4,674 nucleotides of DNA, taken from a virus (taxonomy: Duplodnaviria > Heunggongvirae > Uroviricota > Caudoviricetes). Shown here piece after piece: positions 1 to 4,674 of the stretch. The DNA lies in the IMG/VR virus record IMGVR_UViG_2744054872_000006, positions 1 to 4,674 of that record; one strand, given 5' to 3'. The notes beneath the pieces were generated by a model that was not told the origin of the DNA, made no database searches, and saw only the letters and a list, made by a program, of their open reading frames with translations. The position numbers and the translations under genes are program-made. How positions within the stretch are numbered: position 1 is the first letter of the stretch; each line of letters begins with the position of its first letter.

Positions 1-1263
1 TCAGCGAACGTAAATAGTGCCGCCGTTCTCTTTTTCCCATGCATCGCTACGTGCATAGCAAACATCGAGAAGTCTTCTTGCCGCAGTTTCCTCTAAACCC
101 AATTCGACAACCAACTGCTCATGACGGCGGGTAACCACATCAAACAGGGTATGCAGCCCTTTAGTTGCCAGATCATCAATGAATTCCGGTTCGAACGGCA
201 GCTCTGCATCTGCCAACATAACCTCTTGCGCCCACTCAACTCGACGGACCAATTCCGGGCGGCGGCTTTCCATCTCTTTACAGATCAATTCATGGAAGAA
301 CTCTACCCAACCTTCCGGCTGAAACTCGCGGAAAATTGCCAACGGCTGGAAGTTTGGCATCAACCATTCGTTGATTCGGATATCAATGGCATAGCCCATG
401 TCGCAGCAGAACTGATAAGCAAAGTCCAGCTTAGAAACGATATAAGGACGCTCGTTATTGAACTCTTTAGGCGATGAGATCCCATAAGCCAGGAGGCGCG
501 GGAAGAAGGAGATTTGCCCTAACGTCGGATGAAGTTTGCTTGCAGGGAAACGGCGCTCAGTAATGCCATACATTTCCTTCTTGAGCGTCGCAAATTTGGC
601 ATTCTCATTAACCAGCGCGGTAACCTCTGCTTTTTTATTAGCAAATGCCACGCGCGCCTCGCTTGCATCTTTAATAGTTTTTTTGAGCTGTTGGTTAAGG
701 TCGGCGACCTGCTTACGCAGTTCCTGTCGCTCGCTTTTAGCTTTGTTATAGCGTTTCTCAAGGTTAAAAGGATCAAGTTTCATGATCTCTTTATATTGAG
801 ATTTTAGCGTTGAAATCTGTAAGTTCCGCAGTTCAACCATCGCGGTCATTTCATTGAGTTTTGTTTCCAGCTCAATGCTTATACGTTCGGCATTATCAGC
901 ACGCTGGTTGGCGTCATGCGTCGCATCGTCGATCGCGTCCTGTTGCTGGCGTTTCAAATGTTCAATTTGCAGCTGAAGCTCTTCAATTTCTTTACCCTTC
1001 AGACCGAGATCCAACTGCATATTTTCAGCTGCATCTACCAGGGAGTTATGGCTATCAGCTTCTGCGTTATAAACATCAATAAGCTGTGCGTGAAGCATCT
1101 CCGCTGACTGAACCGCATTATCAAAAAAACGTGCTGTGAGGTCATCACAACTAACGCGGCGTTGCGCGGCCCGGATGTTCTGGATAATGGCCGGAATACC
1201 GGCATTCAGGACATCAGGGATAGATACATTTTCGATTGATTGGTTTTGTGCTGAAGTGCTCAT
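1..1263 (-). CDS. Hypothetical coiled-coil protein (420 aa) with a long heptad-like, charged N-terminal half and a globular C-terminal domain; function unknown
   Basis: Long uninterrupted ORF with ATG at 1263-1261 and TGA at 3-1. The N-terminal ~230 aa are rich in E/K/Q/L repeats typical of coiled coils. The start lies 1 nt downstream of the stop of the 72-aa ORF (TGAAATG on the minus strand), suggesting translational coupling. The window begins exactly at this stop codon. No family recognised. Confidence 0.7.
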   Translation of the reverse strand: MSTSAQNQSIENVSIPDVLNAGIPAIIQNIRAAQRRVSCDDLTARFFDNAVQSAEMLHAQLIDVYNAEADSHNSLVDAAENMQLDLGLKGKEIEELQLQIEHLKRQQQDAIDDATHDANQRADNAERISIELETKLNEMTAMVELRNLQISTLKSQYKEIMKLDPFNLEKRYNKAKSERQELRKQVADLNQQLKKTIKDASEARVAFANKKAEVTALVNENAKFATLKKEMYGITERRFPASKLHPTLGQISFFPRLLAYGISSPKEFNNERPYIVSKLDFAYQFCCDMGYAIDIRINEWLMPNFQPLAIFREFQPEGWVEFFHELICKEMESRRPELVRRVEWAQEVMLADAELPFEPEFIDDLATKGLHTLFDVVTRRHEQLVVELGLEETAARRLLDVCYARSDAWEKENGGTIYVR

Positions 1264-1264
1264 T

Positions 1265-1483
1265 TCAAAGTTCCGTATTAGCTTGTGCTTCGGTCATTTT
1301 TCCTAAGTATGAAGGTGGAAGGACTACGCAATTTGTATCCAGTCCCTCACCTATGGCAGCCTGTAAAATTCTGGCTAAGGTGAGTCTCTTGTTGCGATAC
1401 CTGGTGATGACATGCCTGATACCGCCGGTCGGCGTAACAAAGGCGATCAGCCAGTAGTGATATTTCCGTCGGAATGGCCACAT
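1265..1483 (-). CDS. Small hypothetical protein (72 aa), possibly co-translated with the downstream 420-aa protein
   Basis: ATG at 1483-1481 is preceded on the minus strand by AAGGTG (plus 1488-1493) with a 4-nt spacer. The TGA stop at 1267-1265 sits 1 nt from the ATG of the 420-aa gene. Co-directional with all other genes. Protein family not recognised. Confidence 0.45.
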   Translation of the reverse strand: MWPFRRKYHYWLIAFVTPTGGIRHVITRYRNKRLTLARILQAAIGEGLDTNCVVLPPSYLGKMTEAQANTEL

Positions 1484-1487
1484 AGTG

Positions 1488-1493
1488 CACCTT
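1488..1493 (-). promoter_or_regulatory. Shine-Dalgarno-like sequence (AAGGTG) for the 72-aa ORF
   Basis: The minus strand reads AAGGTGCACTATG, placing a purine-rich GGTG core 4-5 nt upstream of the ATG at 1483. Confidence 0.4.
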
Positions 1494-1506
1494 GTAGATT
1501 GCTCTG

Positions 1507-1534
1507 ATAAAAAACATGATGAGTGTACATCACG
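1507..1534 (-). terminator. Candidate intrinsic terminator or RNA hairpin between the glycosyltransferase-like gene and the 72-aa ORF
   Basis: The minus-strand RNA would read CGUGAUG-UACACU-CAUCAUG followed by UUUUUUAU: a 7-bp stem including one G:U pair, a 6-nt loop and a U6 tract. The stem is AU-rich and therefore weak. It lies in the only sizeable AT-rich intergenic gap (1484-1580). Confidence 0.3.
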
Positions 1535-1580
1535 TTTTAAAAATAATGAATTATTAGAGCAATATTATTCTGATTCTCGC

Positions 1581-2267
1581 TCAAAAAAATGAGCTGATAA
1601 GGGGAAGCCAATCCTCTGACACTTCGCGAGGTCGCGGTTTGCCGTGGAAAAAGATTATTCGGCAGTCTTTTGGTAATGCCCCATTCCCCCTGGAGTAACG
1701 CGCGCTCGCATATTTCGAACCAGGTTCCACAACATCGGCCTTGTAACTTACAAACCATCCCGGATACAGATCCTGAAATGCTGGTGTATCATCACCCATA
1801 ACCTTCCGCAAAAACCCCTGATCACCCCAGCATTCAGTAGTAACACAACGAGCAATCCAACCTTCCGGATCTTGCCAGAATGCACTCCAGATATGCGCTT
1901 TTACACTATTTGGTATCCACAGGGCACCGCTGCCACGATATTGTGGATGGTAAAAATCCCTAAGCATGGTGAAGCTGGTTGGTGGATTCTCTAGGATTGG
2001 GCGTATATCACCGGCAATAACCGTGTCCAAATCCAGATAGAACAGATCATCGGTTATATCCGGTCGGAACAACTCGATTTTCGCCCACCAGCCACGGCAC
2101 TTTTGCCACTGGTTGATCAATGGGACAACTTTGACGCCAGGTACATGTAAACGCTTCAGGTCTGTCAGGCAAATAATTTCATAGCCTTTTGGCAGTTGAT
2201 TAACCAGCCACTGCACATCGGAAGCGTTATAGTCACCACCAGAGCGAAGAACTAAAGCAATCTTCAT
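1581..2267 (-). CDS. Putative GT-A-fold glycosyltransferase (228 aa) with a DXD motif, GT8-like
   Basis: ATG at 2267-2265 overlaps the TGA of the upstream phosphatase gene (ATGA, 4-nt overlap), with GGTG 4 nt upstream. The protein has an N-terminal [12 protein letters not shown] strand, a [18 protein letters not shown] segment (YLDxDxxV...DI, like the DXD nucleotide-sugar/metal site of GT-A enzymes) and a C-terminal [10 protein letters not shown] resembling the HxxGxxKPW motif of GT8 enzymes. Assignment is by motif memory only. Confidence 0.6.
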
Positions 2268-2956
2268 GCTGCACCATCACCTTTCACTTTCATCAATGTC
2301 AGGTTTCCGCAAAATACGGCACCTGTGTCGATATAATGCTGATTCCAGAATGTCTTCGGGCTTTTCACCGGAGTGTGACCAAAGATAAAACGATCTGCGC
2401 CAGAAATTTCGCCACCAATATCATCCATCGAATCACTGATACGCTCGCGCGCCCAGACAACGTTGAAAAGCGGCACCTCCTTACCGAATTGATATTCATT
2501 ATCCGGATAGTCGGCATGGGCTATAACGATAGTTTCTTGCCCGGTGTTCAACTCAATGATATAGGGCAGTCGTCTTACCAACTCCACCAGCGCCCTGGCT
2601 AATATTTCCTGATCAGCGTCCAGCATGAAGAACCATTGACCGCCATTCATTAGCCAGTTATTCACGTTGCCATCTGGACTTAACGCATCAATCATCAGCC
2701 GCTCATGGTTCCCCATCACTGCCCTGAACCAGGGCATCTGCAATAGTTCCAGACATTCGACATTTTCAGTACCGCGATCGATAAGGTCGCCGACCGATAT
2801 CAGTAAATCCTGCGCCGGGTCAAAATCCACACGATGGAGTTCGGACATCAGTCTGGTGTAGCAACCATGCAGATCACCAACAACCCAGACATTCCTGTAT
2901 TTGGTACCGTCGATACGGTGATAAATTGTGGGTGCCATCATGTATTCTTCAGCCAT
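2264..2956 (-). CDS. Serine/threonine protein phosphatase, calcineurin-like metallophosphoesterase (lambda orf221/NinI-type)
   Basis: Contains the PPP-family motifs VVGDLHGCY (GDxHG), VGDLIDRG (GDxxDR) and GNHE, plus a downstream FGHTP. It aligns along its whole length with lambda phosphatase as I remember it ([56 protein letters not shown]). The true start may be the ATG at 2941 or 2938 rather than 2956: these would give ATGA or TGATG overlap with the upstream stop and an N-terminus matching lambda's length. Confidence 0.9.
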
Positions 2957-3564
2957 TCTTTAAGAGTCATCTGCGGAATACCTCCCATTTTCCCGCATGA
3001 AACAACGTCAATCTGTTCACGCGCAGACTGGAATAACAAAGGCAGGTGACTTAGATTTTTTGGCGTGCCGCCGGAGTGAACGCGTGGTTCTTGTGTAGCG
3101 TCAACGCCCACCAGGGCGACATGTTTGAATCCGATATGGAAAGCCAGGTTCAGAGCACCATATGCACTATTGCCGCTGGCAATTTCATTCTCATCTTCAC
3201 AAAGGCCGAAATGTGCGGACCAGCGCCACGCCCACCACTCGGGAGAATTCGTATTTTTTGGCTCCGTGCCGCGCTCAGCCACACGACGGAAGCACAGAAC
3301 GCCATCTCTGACTTCACGTTCTTTAACATCGGGTAGTGCCATGCAATAACAAACACCACGGCGACGGCGGCCACGACCAACGCGCCGCATATTGTCTGGC
3401 GATGGATCAAGGGTGAAAAAATAAGAAGCGCGGTTAAGCCAGTCGATGGCCCCATTGACCGCTATAATCGGCACTCCGCGCGGCGCAACAAAGTTTGCGG
3501 CGCTTGGGCCACTGCCGACGATAATAACGCGATCACTGCCTCTAAATTTATTCTTGGGAAACAT
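2938..3564 (-). CDS. GSGPS-motif Rossmann-like transferase, paralog B (208 aa); GT42 sialyltransferase-like / DUF115 (MptE/Maf-like) candidate
   Basis: ATG at 3564-3562 with AGGAG (plus 3577-3581) 12 nt upstream. Carries VIIVGSGPS near the N-terminus, then IIAVNG, then [26 protein letters not shown]. This pattern recalls Campylobacter Cst-II (AGNGPSL ... RCN ... TSGxxxxAxAxALGYKxIYLxGID). It is clearly paralogous to the adjacent upstream gene. Contains an arginine-rich insert, [16 protein letters not shown]. Confidence 0.7.
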
Positions 3565-4124
3565 TGAATTGCACTGCTCCTACTTGCATTCAAAATATGT
3601 AAATCTGCGTGTTTTTTGCGGGTATCCAGGAACTGCTGTTGCCATTTTGAAATAGACACCTGCGTTGGATTCCGTAGGGCTTGAGGGTGCGCGCCATGCC
3701 AATGAAGGCCGTTTTGCAGAGAACAGTCATAGCCGACTAATACCACTACTTCAGCCCCTGATTCAGCAGCCAGACTGATAGCCTGCGCGCCGCTATTTAC
3801 CCCTTCCGCCGGTCCACAATATCGCCTGTACTCCAACGAAAATGATTTCGCCGCCGCCAGGTTGGCTGTCACTTTGCGGAATCTCCCTCCCGGTATGGTG
3901 GATCCGTATTGCTTCCACCATGACAAATCACCGGCGTATAAGGCATAAATGTCATCGAACATCTGCCAGGAATTGTTAACCGCGATGATTGAACAGCCAG
4001 TTTTTTCTATAGCAGCACAGTCCTCACGAGTGAGTGACGGACCGCTACCGACACAAAAAACAGTCCTAGTCGCCCTGGGTGGTATGTTCATTCTCAGCTG
4101 CAAATTCAGCCTCCAGGCGAGCAT
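3462..4124 (-). CDS. GSGPS-motif Rossmann-like transferase, paralog A (220 aa); GT42 sialyltransferase-like / DUF115 (MptE/Maf-like) candidate
   Basis: Carries FCVGSGPSL, IIAVNN and NSGAQAISLAAESGAEVVVLVGYD motifs collinear with paralog B. The start is uncertain: the ATG at 4124 has no SD, and the internal ATG at 4091 (Met12) gives an N-terminus of similar length to paralog B. The 3' end overlaps paralog B by 103 nt in another frame. Confidence 0.7.
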   Translation of the reverse strand: MLAWRLNLQLRMNIPPRATRTVFCVGSGPSLTREDCAAIEKTGCSIIAVNNSWQMFDDIYALYAGDLSWWKQYGSTIPGGRFRKVTANLAAAKSFSLEYRRYCGPAEGVNSGAQAISLAAESGAEVVVLVGYDCSLQNGLHWHGAHPQALRNPTQVSISKWQQQFLDTRKKHADLHILNASRSSAIQCFPRINLEAVIALLSSAVAQAPQTLLRRAECRL

Positions 4125-4221
4125 TCATTTCAGCGATTACCGGGTCCACTACAGCATCTGCTTCCTGTTCATTACGCGGCATGATCGATGCCAGCGATTC
4201 ATAATTAGCCTTGAATGACAC
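4066..4221 (-). CDS. Candidate small acidic protein (51 aa from GTG at 4221, or 38 aa from ATG at 4182), not in the supplied ORF track
   Basis: Hand translation of the minus strand gives VSFKANYESLASIMPRNEQEADAVVDPVIAEMNARLEAEFAAENEHTTQGD, ending at TAG 4068-4066. GGGAG (plus 4229-4233) lies 7 nt upstream of the GTG at 4221-4219. The ORF fills the otherwise empty gap between the VRR-NUC gene and paralog A, and overlaps the annotated 5' end of paralog A. Confidence 0.25.
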   Translation of the reverse strand: MSFKANYESLASIMPRNEQEADAVVDPVIAEMNARLEAEFAAENEHTTQGD

Positions 4222-4240
4222 GATTATTCTCCCGATGTTA

Positions 4241-4267
4241 ATGTGCGCTATATCAAAGAGCGCATAT
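4241..4267. promoter_or_regulatory. Imperfect inverted repeat (ATGTGCGC-N11-GCGCATAT) just downstream of the VRR-NUC stop; possible operator or RNA hairpin
   Basis: 8-bp arms with one mismatch and an 11-nt TATAT-containing spacer, seen directly in the sequence. Not followed by a clean U-tract on the minus strand, so not a canonical terminator. Confidence 0.2.
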
Positions 4268-4287
4268 GCACTAATTAATTTATTATT

Positions 4288-4674
4288 TTAAGCAGCATAC
4301 AACCACTTGTCGCCGTTCAATACATGCTCAATAGCCTCACCCTTTTTAAGGCTTATGTATTCCAGGATGGCGGTTATCGCTTGTTCTGCACCATACGCAA
4401 GAACGACGTAGTAACCTTCCTCTCTAAGCCTGCGCATCCAGGCGATCTGCTCTTTCGTCGGGGCTTTACCATTTGGTTCTTTAAGCTCAATTCGCATGCC
4501 GTGATAAATACCGCATGCTTTATCGAGACTCATGTCCGGATAACCTTTTTTCTGCCCTTCAGCCTTCATTTTCCCGGCGGTTGCTTTTGAACGTTTCCCT
4601 GGCTTTGTTGAATAAATCGAACTTTTGCTGAGTTGAAGGATCAGATCACGCATCCTCCCGACAACACAGACCAT
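4288..4674 (-). CDS. VRR-NUC domain protein (PD-(D/E)xK-type nuclease, 128 aa)
   Basis: The segment GYPDMSL...GMRIELKEPNGKAPTKEQIAWMRRLREEGYYVVLAYGAEQA matches the VRR-NUC pattern: a PD motif, then E-x-K, then a Q-containing helix and a hydrophobic strand. TAA stop at 4290-4288. The ATG is the last 3 nt of the window, so the start cannot be checked against upstream sequence. Confidence 0.75.
   Translation of the reverse strand: MVCVVGRMRDLILQLSKSSIYSTKPGKRSKATAGKMKAEGQKKGYPDMSLDKACGIYHGMRIELKEPNGKAPTKEQIAWMRRLREEGYYVVLAYGAEQAITAILEYISLKKGEAIEHVLNGDKWLYAA

Follow-up and report, generated by a model that had tools for sequence, protein, structure and literature searches.

A putative glycosylation cassette of phage P1 comprising the diverged paralogs PmgO and PmgP and a GT8-like partner

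We lean towards the view that the phage genes pmgO, pmgP and pmgQ encode a three-enzyme glycosylation cassette, expressed in lytic growth, in which PmgO and PmgP would be ulosonic-acid-type transferases acting beside PmgQ and using CMP-Kdo supplied by the host. PmgO and PmgP appear to be minimal (approximately 200 aa), soluble, single-domain enzymes of the Maf/WaaZ/Cst Rossmann-like PF01973 fold. The window (the whole stretch of 4,674 nucleotides that was analysed) is 98.4% identical to phage P1, and comparison with the P1 record shows pmgO and pmgP to be named genes of a P1-type phage. Positions 2938-4124 hold exactly two minus-strand ORFs. The layout of the operon is as follows.

1581-2267, minus strand: pmgQ, 228 aa, GT8-like GT-A glycosyltransferase, third conserved member of the module; phrog_1962 'glycosyltransferase'
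2264-2956, minus strand: ppp, lambda-type Ser/Thr phosphatase between pmgP and pmgQ; Pfam Metallophos, phrog_246
2938-3564, minus strand: pmgP, 208 aa, diverged paralog of pmgO
3462-4124, minus strand: pmgO, 220 aa, single-domain, Maf/WaaZ/Cst-like (PF01973-type) fold
4066-4221, minus strand: pmgN, 51 aa, first gene of the operon, overlapping the annotated pmgO start
about 4265-4281: C1 repressor operator Op83/Oppp, by homology with the P1 record
-10 at about 4294-4299 and -35 at about 4315-4320, minus strand: predicted sigma-70 promoter PpmgN, by homology with the P1 record

Operator and promoter were placed by transferring the P1 annotation by coordinates, with a 1-nt offset. If the assignment holds, the operon is repressed by C1 in the lysogen, and the cassette would therefore be expressed in lytic growth and not in lysogeny. 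The gene ppp is restricted to P1 and its nearest relatives, is missing at the O-P-Q loci of more distant phage-plasmids and of other phages, and is no part of the ancestral module. pmgN was seen solely in P1-like elements. In P1, pmgO, pmgP, ppp and pmgQ are non-essential (PMC10695390; PMC9024508); the O-P-Q module is accessory and plaque formation in the laboratory does without it. The P1 literature found on pmgO and pmgP consists of essentiality data, with no functional work, and virion proteomics of P1 reported no glycosylation, though it was not sought there (PMC9024508). P1 is among the most used phages in bacterial genetics.

A direct BLASTP comparison of PmgO with PmgP detects the N-terminal block alone (E = 0.003), which indicates strong divergence. 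At family level, hhalign gave a full-length match (probability 97.95%, E = 3.1e-13, 165 aligned columns, 25% identity), with the O-P fusion protein P0051 excluded from the PmgO alignment since its PmgP half would match the PmgP family. Each paralog cross-matches the PHROG family of the other, and their AlphaFold models (pLDDT 86 and 95) have an identical ranking of structural neighbours. Taken with the full-length profile match, this makes true paralogy, and not chance, the explanation for their similarity. A preliminary description, made from the DNA letters, had proposed an old duplication kept in tandem; the full-length family match supports this proposal. It had also listed GSGPS, AVN, SG and LVG-D motifs in both adjacent proteins. 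All are present and collinear, at coordinates obtained by translation.

4035-4049, minus strand: PmgO GSGPS loop, aligned with Cst-II GNGPS (residues 8-12) and WaaZ SGPTS
3975-3983, minus strand: PmgO AVN (checked by translation)
3789-3797, minus strand: PmgO NSG (checked by translation)
3726-3734, minus strand: end of PmgO LVGYD (checked by translation)
3726-3797, minus strand: PmgO N110-S111-G112 to G131-Y132-D133, helix and strand
3693-3704, minus strand: PmgO H141-W-H143-G motif, 8-11 residues past D133
3502-3516, minus strand: PmgP GSGPS loop (translation and family alignment)
3454-3462, minus strand: PmgP AVN (checked by translation)
3166-3174, minus strand: PmgP GNS (checked by translation)
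3100-3108, minus strand: end of PmgP LVGVD (checked by translation)
3100-3174, minus strand: PmgP G131-N132-S133 to G153-V154-D155, matching the helix and strand block of PmgO
3046-3048, minus strand: PmgP H173, invariant His just before helix 174-180

The PmgO segment from N110-G112 to D133 aligns with T131-S132-G133 to G152-I-D153 of Cst-II and with T171 to G192-L-D194 of WaaZ. Residues invariant in the PmgO family are N50, D66, W70, S111, G112, G131-S135 (GYDCS), H141, H143, W161, N179 and R182, while those of the PmgP family include N37, D53, N58, R94, G131-S133 (GNS), G153, D155 and H173. Relative to PmgO, PmgP has approximately 30 aa inserted after the third strand and before the NS helix. 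Neither paralog looks dead: both families keep their common motif residues unchanged.

Maf glycosyltransferase, MptE and Cst-I are the top structural neighbours of both models, followed by thiamine pyrophosphokinases (TPKs) and GT29 sialyltransferases. The GT42 enzymes and the DUF115/MptE group had been put forward as alternative assignments, but this is a false choice because these families have one common fold. Both proteins show the single-domain GT-A-variant Rossmann fold of GT42, the central-domain fold of Maf and the HPPK fold of the MptE type. Glycosyltransferase branches of the PF01973 fold use CMP-activated ulosonic acids. The two P1 proteins score 23.4 and 20.9 bits with PF01973 in Pfam, below the gathering threshold of 34.6, and the fusion homolog P0051 passes it with 44.6 bits.

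Single-sequence searches of the PDB with PmgO and PmgP gave nothing relevant. A merged PmgO+PmgP profile retrieved glycosyltransferases only, namely Maf and GT42, the latter with eight entries (best E = 0.005), with no MptE or TPK entry among its PDB matches; structure 8SD5 of MptE was not matched by any PmgO/PmgP profile at E up to 10. MptE (the archaeal 6-hydroxymethyl-7,8-dihydropterin pyrophosphokinase, 8SD5) and the TPKs carry out ATP pyrophosphoryl transfer. It is very improbable that one or both of the P1 proteins act in this way, passing pyrophosphate from ATP to a hydroxymethyl-bearing pterin, thiamine-like or nucleotide-derived compound. PF01973 (DUF115, 'MptE-like') takes its name from a single branch and includes the Maf glycosyltransferases too, and PmgO/PmgP profiles reach GT42, Maf and WaaZ but never MptE or TPK. 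The genes are fused to, and always found with, a gene for a GT8-like glycosyltransferase, often together with sugar-type methyltransferases. No folate, pterin or thiamine genes are present in any examined neighbourhood; instead of an MptE pathway, the context consists of glycosyltransferases, methyltransferases and phage head genes.

The likeness to GT42 that had been noted holds for the fold and the CMP-sugar-site motifs but does not extend to significant family-level sequence similarity. The Cst-II motifs GxGPS, N31, N51, T-S132-G and G-x-D153 have collinear invariant counterparts in both paralog families, with D in PmgO and PmgP at the N51 position, where the alignment has a one-residue offset. 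Separate family profiles matched GT42 at E = 0.26-1.3, and the merged two-family profile alone reaches 0.005; hhalign to Cst-II gave E = 0.004-0.007 with a probability below 10%. A His following the LVG-D block is conserved in both proteins (H141, H143 and H146 in PmgO; H173 in PmgP), although the first such His of PmgP, H164, is not. Its equivalence to the catalytic base H188 of Cst-II is drawn from motif order and is tentative: Cst-II alignments are unreliable past GxD, the Cst-II lid region (H188, Tyr156/Tyr162) is unalignable and the segments themselves differ (HWHGxH in PmgO, NLSH in PmgP). The H141-W-H143-G motif, which PmgP lacks and which never varies within the PmgO family, may bind the leaving-group phosphate or serve as a base, and H173 of PmgP might correspond to the catalytic His of GT42.

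The known enzymes Cst-I and Cst-II (Campylobacter jejuni; 1RO7, 2P2V/2P56) have 260-290 aa and a lid domain containing Y156, Y162 and H188. They are membrane-associated via a C-terminal tail, whereas PmgO and PmgP appear to be soluble. The Cst donor is CMP-Neu5Ac, which E. coli K-12 is not known to synthesize; this makes it an unlikely donor for PmgO and PmgP in the laboratory host.

Maf (5MU5, PF01973 Maf_flag10) has approximately 600 aa and three domains, of which the N- and C-terminal ones bind the acceptor, while PmgO and PmgP each correspond to the bare catalytic domain of approximately 200 aa. Maf is linked to genes for flagellin and nonulosonic-acid biosynthesis, to neither of which PmgO and PmgP show a link, their neighbours being phage head, lysis or adhesin genes with no cytidylyltransferase; unlike Maf, PmgO and PmgP form a phage-borne paralog pair with a GT8-like partner. 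In E. coli BL21, Maf puts Kdo on Ser/Thr from endogenous CMP-Kdo, and its activity depends on a pair of acidic residues together with a conserved Ser (bioRxiv 10.1101/2020.06.03.131540; PMC11339370). Invariant candidates for E324, D415 and the Ser of MmMaf, matched by motif order and spacing alone, are D66, D133 and S111 in PmgO and D53, D155 and S133 in PmgP.

The best profile-profile relative of PmgO and PmgP is WaaZ, the LPS inner-core Kdo III transferase of E. coli/Salmonella (CAZy GT73; TIGR04437, PF27901), itself a sub-threshold match to PF01973. By hhalign, the WaaZ family matched the merged profile from end to end, C-terminal subdomain included (95.9%, E = 6.4e-9, 184 columns), PmgP alone at 82.6% (E = 9.7e-6) and PmgO alone at 43.7% in the C-terminal half only. 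Common to WaaZ and the two P1 proteins are the SGP(S/T), AVNG, strand-end D, (S/T)-helix and GxD motifs. WaaZ differs in having 283 aa with an insertion of approximately 60 aa, in being a single copy encoded in the waa cluster (PmgO and PmgP are phage-borne with no adjacent waa genes) and in having C-H-T in place of G-N-S. With the curated WaaZ models TIGR04437/NF007333, PmgP scored 11.8 bits (cut-off 200), P0051 20.3 bits and PmgO gave no match; scores of 12-20 bits stand against equivalog cut-offs of 200-473 bits, and the NCBIfam search returned negligible WaaZ/PseD matches only.

PmgQ has an invariant D79-L-D81 and an invariant H208 within FHGxPRP in its family alignment, i.e. the DxD and C-terminal H-x-G-x-x-(K/R)-P motifs of GT8. 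Its profile matches the Skp1 alpha-galactosyltransferase 6mw5 (5e-6), glycogenin (7e-5) and GlyE 5gvv (3e-4). As no GT8 match above threshold was found in Pfam, PmgQ is a distant GT8 member at best.

These relationships are consistent with the following scheme. PmgO and PmgP would act as ulosonic-acid transferases, with Kdo, taken from the CMP-Kdo of the host, as the probable sugar. Each may bind the CMP-ulosonic acid through its GSGPS loop and the asparagine of AVN, with further contacts from the strand-end Asp (D53 in PmgP/D66 in PmgO), the N-S helix cap (S133/S111) and the GxD Asp (D155/D133). Two ulosonic-acid residues might be transferred, either successively or by a hetero-complex; Cst-II provides an analogy as it adds two sialic acids onto a galactose. 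PmgQ would use a UDP-hexose via its putative DxD/His metal site. CMP-Kdo is the most likely donor since it is the sole CMP-ulosonic acid supplied by every Gram-negative host, including E. coli K-12; the argument draws on availability (CMP-Kdo, which WaaZ uses as donor, is present in every host of the O-P-Q module) and on kinship with WaaZ, and on no specific signature. None of 26 loci has a gene for a KdsB-like cytidylyltransferase within 8 kb; the donor therefore has to be supplied by the host.

The order pmgO-pmgP-pmgQ is conserved across 43 non-identical loci, 19 of them species-level loci from a genome scan and 24 of them viral contigs from a scan seeded by a distant homolog. PmgQ follows PmgP in every viral contig (24/24) and in 16/19 genome loci, the three exceptions being contigs that end too early, and PmgO lies directly upstream of PmgP in 20/24 viral contigs. 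Gamma-, Alpha- and Betaproteobacteria, Bacteroidota and Gemmatimonadota are all represented among these loci, and the putative cassette thus recurs in many phages from three or more bacterial phyla. Natural fusions join O to P (P0051, the one full case) and P to Q (P0309 and P0397), and double O-like proteins are also found (P0367 and P0369). PmgP-PmgQ pairs without PmgO are present at four loci (L098, L101, L111 and L112), and lone PmgO-like genes occur in Rhizobiales prophages (L105-L108).

It is distinctly unlikely that only one paralog is catalytic, the other being a non-catalytic partner for acceptor recognition or stability in an obligate heterodimer. The pair stays together and is sometimes fused, the segment after GxD (the catalytic region of GT42) is fully diverged (HWHGxH versus RxxGGxPxNLSH) and the loci with PmgP and PmgQ alone show PmgO to be the dispensable partner. 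However, both families keep all the shared nucleotide-sugar-site residues (GPS, N, D, NS and GxD) invariant, which would be unusual for a pseudoenzyme, and the solitary PmgO-like genes of Rhizobiales prophages also argue against it.

In at least seven phages the module lies directly behind the TerL-portal-protease-major capsid genes, often with an FkbM/SAM methyltransferase gene. At other loci its neighbours are Big_1 adhesins of the inverse-autotransporter kind, and in one case Big_1/Big_13 domains are joined to a PmgO-like protein; some homologs adjoin lysis cassettes. Gene context thus favours a protein acceptor, which might be a virion protein or an Ig-domain surface protein, with the LPS core (the P1 receptor) as the main alternative. 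The most specific version of the proposal is unlikely to be right: in P1 and many further phages of Gram-negative hosts, a PmgO-PmgP hetero-complex of pared-down Maf-like domains and the GT8-like enzyme would decorate virion proteins, or the Ig-domain adhesins of chromosomal versions, with a short Kdo-containing glycan built from host CMP-Kdo.

Action on LPS, in the manner of WaaZ, is unlikely but has several points in its favour. PmgO and PmgP would add Kdo-type residues, and PmgQ a hexose, to the inner/outer core of the host during lytic growth, at the cytoplasmic face of the inner membrane, altering or truncating the P1-receptor core; fewer progeny phage might then be lost on cell debris, or superinfection might be reduced. 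WaaZ is the closest relative at profile level, and GT8, the family to which PmgQ is related, includes LPS core hexosyltransferases. To judge by the title of Frirdich et al. 2003, over-expression of waaZ reportedly modifies the inner core and truncates the outer core. Donor CMP-Kdo and acceptor are both in every host, and the position of some homologs beside lysis cassettes is a typical site for accessory genes. Against this, an operon repressed by C1, as annotated, could not give lysogenic conversion, and location between major capsid and head-completion genes, or beside Ig-domain adhesins, in many unrelated phages indicates protein targets. Furthermore, the PDB entries that PmgQ matches best are GT8 enzymes that modify proteins, as opposed to the LgtC/Waa types, and the P1 proteins fall far under the WaaZ equivalog cut-offs.

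The glycosylation cassette that we favour resembles those of mycobacteriophages, which have virion glycosylation cassettes with glycosyltransferase genes beside capsid genes. In both, glycosyltransferase genes, with or without methyltransferase genes, lie directly downstream of the major capsid gene and are accessory for growth. The mycobacteriophage cassettes differ in having other glycosyltransferase families, Gram-positive-type hosts and no ulosonic-acid-type enzymes. The analysis suggests that Pmg O, P and Q are not morphogenetic proteins. Should virion or surface proteins receive Kdo from the host pool, phage virion glycosylation, so far of mycobacteriophages, would be extended to Gram-negative systems. 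In that case PmgO and PmgP would be the smallest known Maf/WaaZ-type transferases and might give glyco-engineering in E. coli a set of compact enzymes. No native system that puts Kdo on proteins would precede a Kdo-containing protein glycan of this kind, and decoration of virions would be the first known in a classical coliphage. If the module instead acts on LPS, a phage would have a new means of editing the receptor that it uses itself.

An anti-defence role, with phage DNA or a nucleotide signal as the target of glycosylation, is highly improbable. DNA-hypermodifying phage glycosyltransferases are known (bioRxiv 10.1101/2023.12.21.572611), and an accessory module expressed in lytic growth would suit such a role. 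However, the module is without hydroxymethyl-pyrimidine pathway genes, its neighbouring methyltransferases are of the FkbM/small-molecule type and searches with PADLOC and for anti-defence families gave no match. Glycosylation is not known from P1 DNA, which also counts against this role.

The 3' end of pmgO and the 5' end of pmgP share sequence, and a Shine-Dalgarno sequence precedes pmgP.

3462-3564, minus strand: overlap of the pmgO 3' end with the pmgP 5' end, 103 nt, pmgP in the -1 frame
3575-3579, minus strand: Shine-Dalgarno AGGAG, 12 nt upstream of the pmgP ATG

An AAAUUUA heptamer stands in frame at 3543-3549, but a programmed -1 frameshift fusing PmgO to PmgP is unsupported and was rejected, since heptamer positions vary between lineages, with one of them the GSGPS motif of PmgP would be lost and the RNA structure further downstream is ordinary (z = -1.46). 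Within the overlap, the tail of PmgO, which is variable across the family and of low pLDDT, coincides with the conserved GSGPS motif of PmgP, and M1 of PmgP is conserved across its family. Overlaps of 3n+1 nt (7-133 nt) were found in 7/7 adjacent O/P pairs from other lineages. Translational coupling of pmgO and pmgP is therefore probable. Together, the full O-P fusion and the gene overlap suggest that PmgO and PmgP may form a complex; the earlier idea of a complex or of two successive steps gains from these and from the prevailing O-P order.

Positions 1-4600 of the window share 98.4% identity with bacteriophage P1 (AF234172 / NC_005856) and with many P1-like phage-plasmids, and all genes of the window are carried on the minus strand:

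pmgM (partial), minus strand, first in the direction of transcription
4066-4221, minus strand, pmgN
3462-4124, minus strand, pmgO (PmgO, 220 aa)
2938-3564, minus strand, pmgP (PmgP, 208 aa)
2264-2956, minus strand, ppp (Ppp, lambda-type Ser/Thr phosphatase)
1581-2267, minus strand, pmgQ (PmgQ, 228 aa)
1265-1483, minus strand, pmgR
1-1263, minus strand, pmgS

The segment 2938-4124 is made up exactly of pmgP and pmgO. Just upstream of pmgN, the P1 record places a sigma-70 promoter and a C1-repressor operator (Op83), with a late promoter further upstream, before pmgL; from these elements, and provided that the P1 annotation transfers, the pmg operon would be silent in the lysogen and active in lytic growth. 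The last 74 bases (4601-4674), inside the VRR-NUC nuclease-like gene pmgM, had no P1 match by megablast, which indicates a probable mosaic joint within this gene.

PmgO and PmgP are genuine, old paralogs, as the preliminary description had it. The GSGPS, AVN, N-S and LVG-x-D blocks occur in the same order in both proteins, with coordinates checked by translation. Pairwise BLASTP aligned the first block only (E 0.003), while family alignments built from 51 PmgO relatives and 328 PmgP relatives matched along their entire length (hhalign: probability 97.95%, E 3.1e-13, 165 columns, 25% identity), bearing out an old duplication kept in tandem. PmgP has an insertion of ~30 residues relative to PmgO, and each protein weakly matches the other's PHROG family. 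AlphaFold2 predicted both PmgO (pLDDT 86, pTM 0.83) and PmgP (pLDDT 94.6, pTM 0.92) with good confidence.

The pair had been assigned either to GT42 (Cst-II-type) enzymes or to DUF115/MptE-like proteins, the latter implying pyrophosphoryl rather than glycosyl transfer. This opposition did not hold, since both models share structural neighbours from the two groups.

Structural neighbours of the PmgO and PmgP models (figures paired where two values are separated by a slash)
Maf flagellin glycosyltransferase, 5MU5: 14.1 / 13.4
Archaeal pterin pyrophosphokinase MptE, 8SD5: 11.6 / 12.9
GT42 sialyltransferase Cst-I, 2P56: 10.8 / 10.8
SteA: about 10
Thiamine pyrophosphokinases: 8-10
Animal GT29 sialyltransferases: 7-9.5

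GT42 and DUF115/MptE are thus branches of one fold, and PF01973 (DUF115) itself includes both Maf glycosyltransferases and MptE (bioRxiv 10.1101/2020.06.03.131540; PMC11339370). Fold is a poorer discriminator than sequence profiles for PmgO and PmgP, which match PF01973 below threshold only. The PDB matches of a merged PmgO+PmgP profile were Maf and eight GT42 entries (best E 0.005), with no MptE or thiamine pyrophosphokinase among them. Because the precomputed annotation of one homolog named the WaaZ family, a profile of this Kdo III transferase (GT73) was constructed. The merged profile matched it over the full length (95.9%, E 6.4e-9); PmgP alone matched less strongly (82.6%, E 1e-5) and PmgO alone in its C-terminal half only. 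WaaZ also has a sub-threshold match to PF01973. By profile comparison, WaaZ is the nearest characterised relative. The proposed resemblance to GT42 stands, but Maf and WaaZ are closer to PmgO and PmgP than Cst-II is.

A G-P-S loop, an Asn closing strand 2, an (N/T)-S/T helix cap and G-x-D are common to PmgO, PmgP, WaaZ and Cst-II, and strand 3 ends in Asp in all but Cst-II, which has Asn. All five common motif elements are invariant in both the PmgO and PmgP families; thus, neither paralog appears inactivated. The segment following G-x-D has diverged (HWHGxH in PmgO, R-x-x-GG-x-P-x-NLSH in PmgP) and is not alignable to that of Cst-II, which contains Y156, Y162 and H188. The conserved His of PmgP, a candidate for the proposed catalytic residue, is H173, not H164.

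HMMs of the window proteins were used to search 24 species-level genome loci and 24 non-P1 viral contigs. Every one of the 24 viral contigs has a PmgQ homolog after PmgP, and so do 16 of 19 genomic PmgP loci, the remaining three being on contigs that stop too soon; PmgO is directly upstream of PmgP in 20/24 viral contigs. Ppp, PmgN, PmgR and PmgS accompany this O-P-Q module in P1-like elements only. The ppp gene (2264-2956) is a late insertion, since more distant P1-like phage-plasmids have M-O-P-Q-R-S without it and only P1 and its nearest relatives have it between pmgP and pmgQ. In the PmgQ family D-x-D and FHGxPRP are invariant, and its profile matches GT8 enzymes (Skp1 alpha-galactosyltransferase, 5e-6; glycogenin, 7e-5; GlyE, 3e-4). 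A 1-nt indel relative to P1, somewhere between positions 1263 and 2266, alters and shortens the C-terminus of PmgQ, which has 228 aa against 233 aa in P1; two other relatives have 230 and 233 aa.

When 1.84 billion representative proteins were searched exhaustively with an O-P fusion (database entry P0051) as query, 2133 relatives were obtained. Among the best 150 were this one O-P fusion, two P-Q fusions (P0309, P0397), two double O-like proteins (P0367, P0369) and one PmgO-like domain joined to Big_1/Big_13 Ig-like domains (P0317). That PmgO and PmgP are strictly linked to, and can be fused with, an evident glycosyltransferase is the strongest argument for glycosyl over pyrophosphoryl transfer by the two proteins, which probably work together, in keeping with the earlier suggestion of a heterodimer or successive transfers. 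Entry P0306 (484 aa) has a PmgO-like domain and ~290 extra C-terminal residues without a Pfam match, whose start (GLGDSIYQRAF...) is GT9 heptosyltransferase-like by eye. A ~192-aa protein that contains a DCD motif but matches no Pfam family also accompanies O-P-Q in several phages (L003 9757-10335, L095, L097, L099, L113, L115, L116) and may be a fourth glycosyltransferase.

The module repeatedly adjoins capsid or adhesin genes. In HK97-type phages of several classes, TerL, portal, protease and major capsid protein genes precede PmgO-PmgP-(FkbM/SAM methyltransferase)-PmgQ, followed by head-completion genes (L096, L112, L115, L119, L122, L124, L127). In Rhizobiales prophages (L105-L108, about 4258-8285), the portal gene, a gene for a collagen-triple-helix-repeat protein and a lone PmgO-like gene stand in that order, and in other loci module genes adjoin lysis cassettes. 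In Pseudescherichia and Serratia chromosomes, O, P and Q are scattered among inverse-autotransporter/invasin genes rich in Big_1 domains (L004 8001-10442, L090-L094); such Ig-domain proteins, as in the P0317 fusion, could be acceptor substrates. All host taxa found are Gram-negative.

The sugar donor must be supplied by the host, since no KdsB-like cytidylyltransferase was found within 8 kb in 26 loci and no sugar-nucleotide pathway among the 25 most frequent of 73 neighbouring Pfam families. To our knowledge, CMP-Kdo is the one CMP-ulosonic acid made by all these hosts. Maf enzymes expressed in E. coli put Kdo on Ser/Thr from CMP-Kdo (bioRxiv 10.1101/2020.06.03.131540; PMC11339370). From this precedent and a host-supplied donor, we infer the chemistry: PmgQ would carry out the UDP-hexose step and PmgP and PmgO two ulosonic-acid transfers, probably of Kdo, yielding a short glycan. 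The gene neighbourhoods point more to a protein acceptor, of the virion or surface. The main alternative is the LPS core, the P1 receptor, to which WaaZ as nearest characterised relative points.

RefSeq and PHROGs label PmgO 'alpha-2,3-sialyltransferase', PmgQ 'glycosyltransferase' and PmgP 'norphogenetic protein'; 'putative morphogenetic function' is a positional label only. A literature search found no published work on the function of the three proteins. The full-length paralogy, the widely distributed module with its fusions, its placement and the link to WaaZ are new. Both CRISPRi knock-down and single-gene deletion showed pmgO, pmgP, ppp and pmgQ to be dispensable for plaque formation (PMC10695390; PMC9024508). 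pmgN (4066-4221) scored essential with CRISPRi (EOP 1.4e-2) but non-essential on deletion; as knock-down of the downstream pmgO and pmgP had no effect, simple polarity fails to explain this discrepancy (PMC10695390).

In all seven lineages with adjacent O and P, the genes overlap by 3n+1 nt (7 to 133 nt). Such an overlap is the usual mark of coupled translation. The 103-nt overlap here (3462-3564) misleads gene callers, and hundreds of public entries have shortened ORFs (for example, P0003 and P0054): PmgO starts at M55 (166 aa, 173 members) and PmgP is called from its residue 31 (178 aa, 373 members), so that each shortened form lacks the GSGPS nucleotide-sugar loop. Within the overlap, in the pmgO frame, is a canonical -1 slippery heptamer (A AAU UUA, 3543-3549, minus strand), where slippage would join the first ~196 residues of PmgO to PmgP starting at residue 7; similar heptamers occur in 3/6 other lineages at inconsistent positions, and the RNA fold downstream is not unusual (z -1.46). 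pmgO also contains an A6 tract (3612-3617, minus strand). A 174-aa PmgO variant (P0002, 48 member sequences), reading ...RKKTRRFTYFECK*, arises by frameshift at this tract and ends at a TAG immediately ahead of where pmgP begins; it may represent a pseudogene or tract-length variation in some P1-like plasmids.
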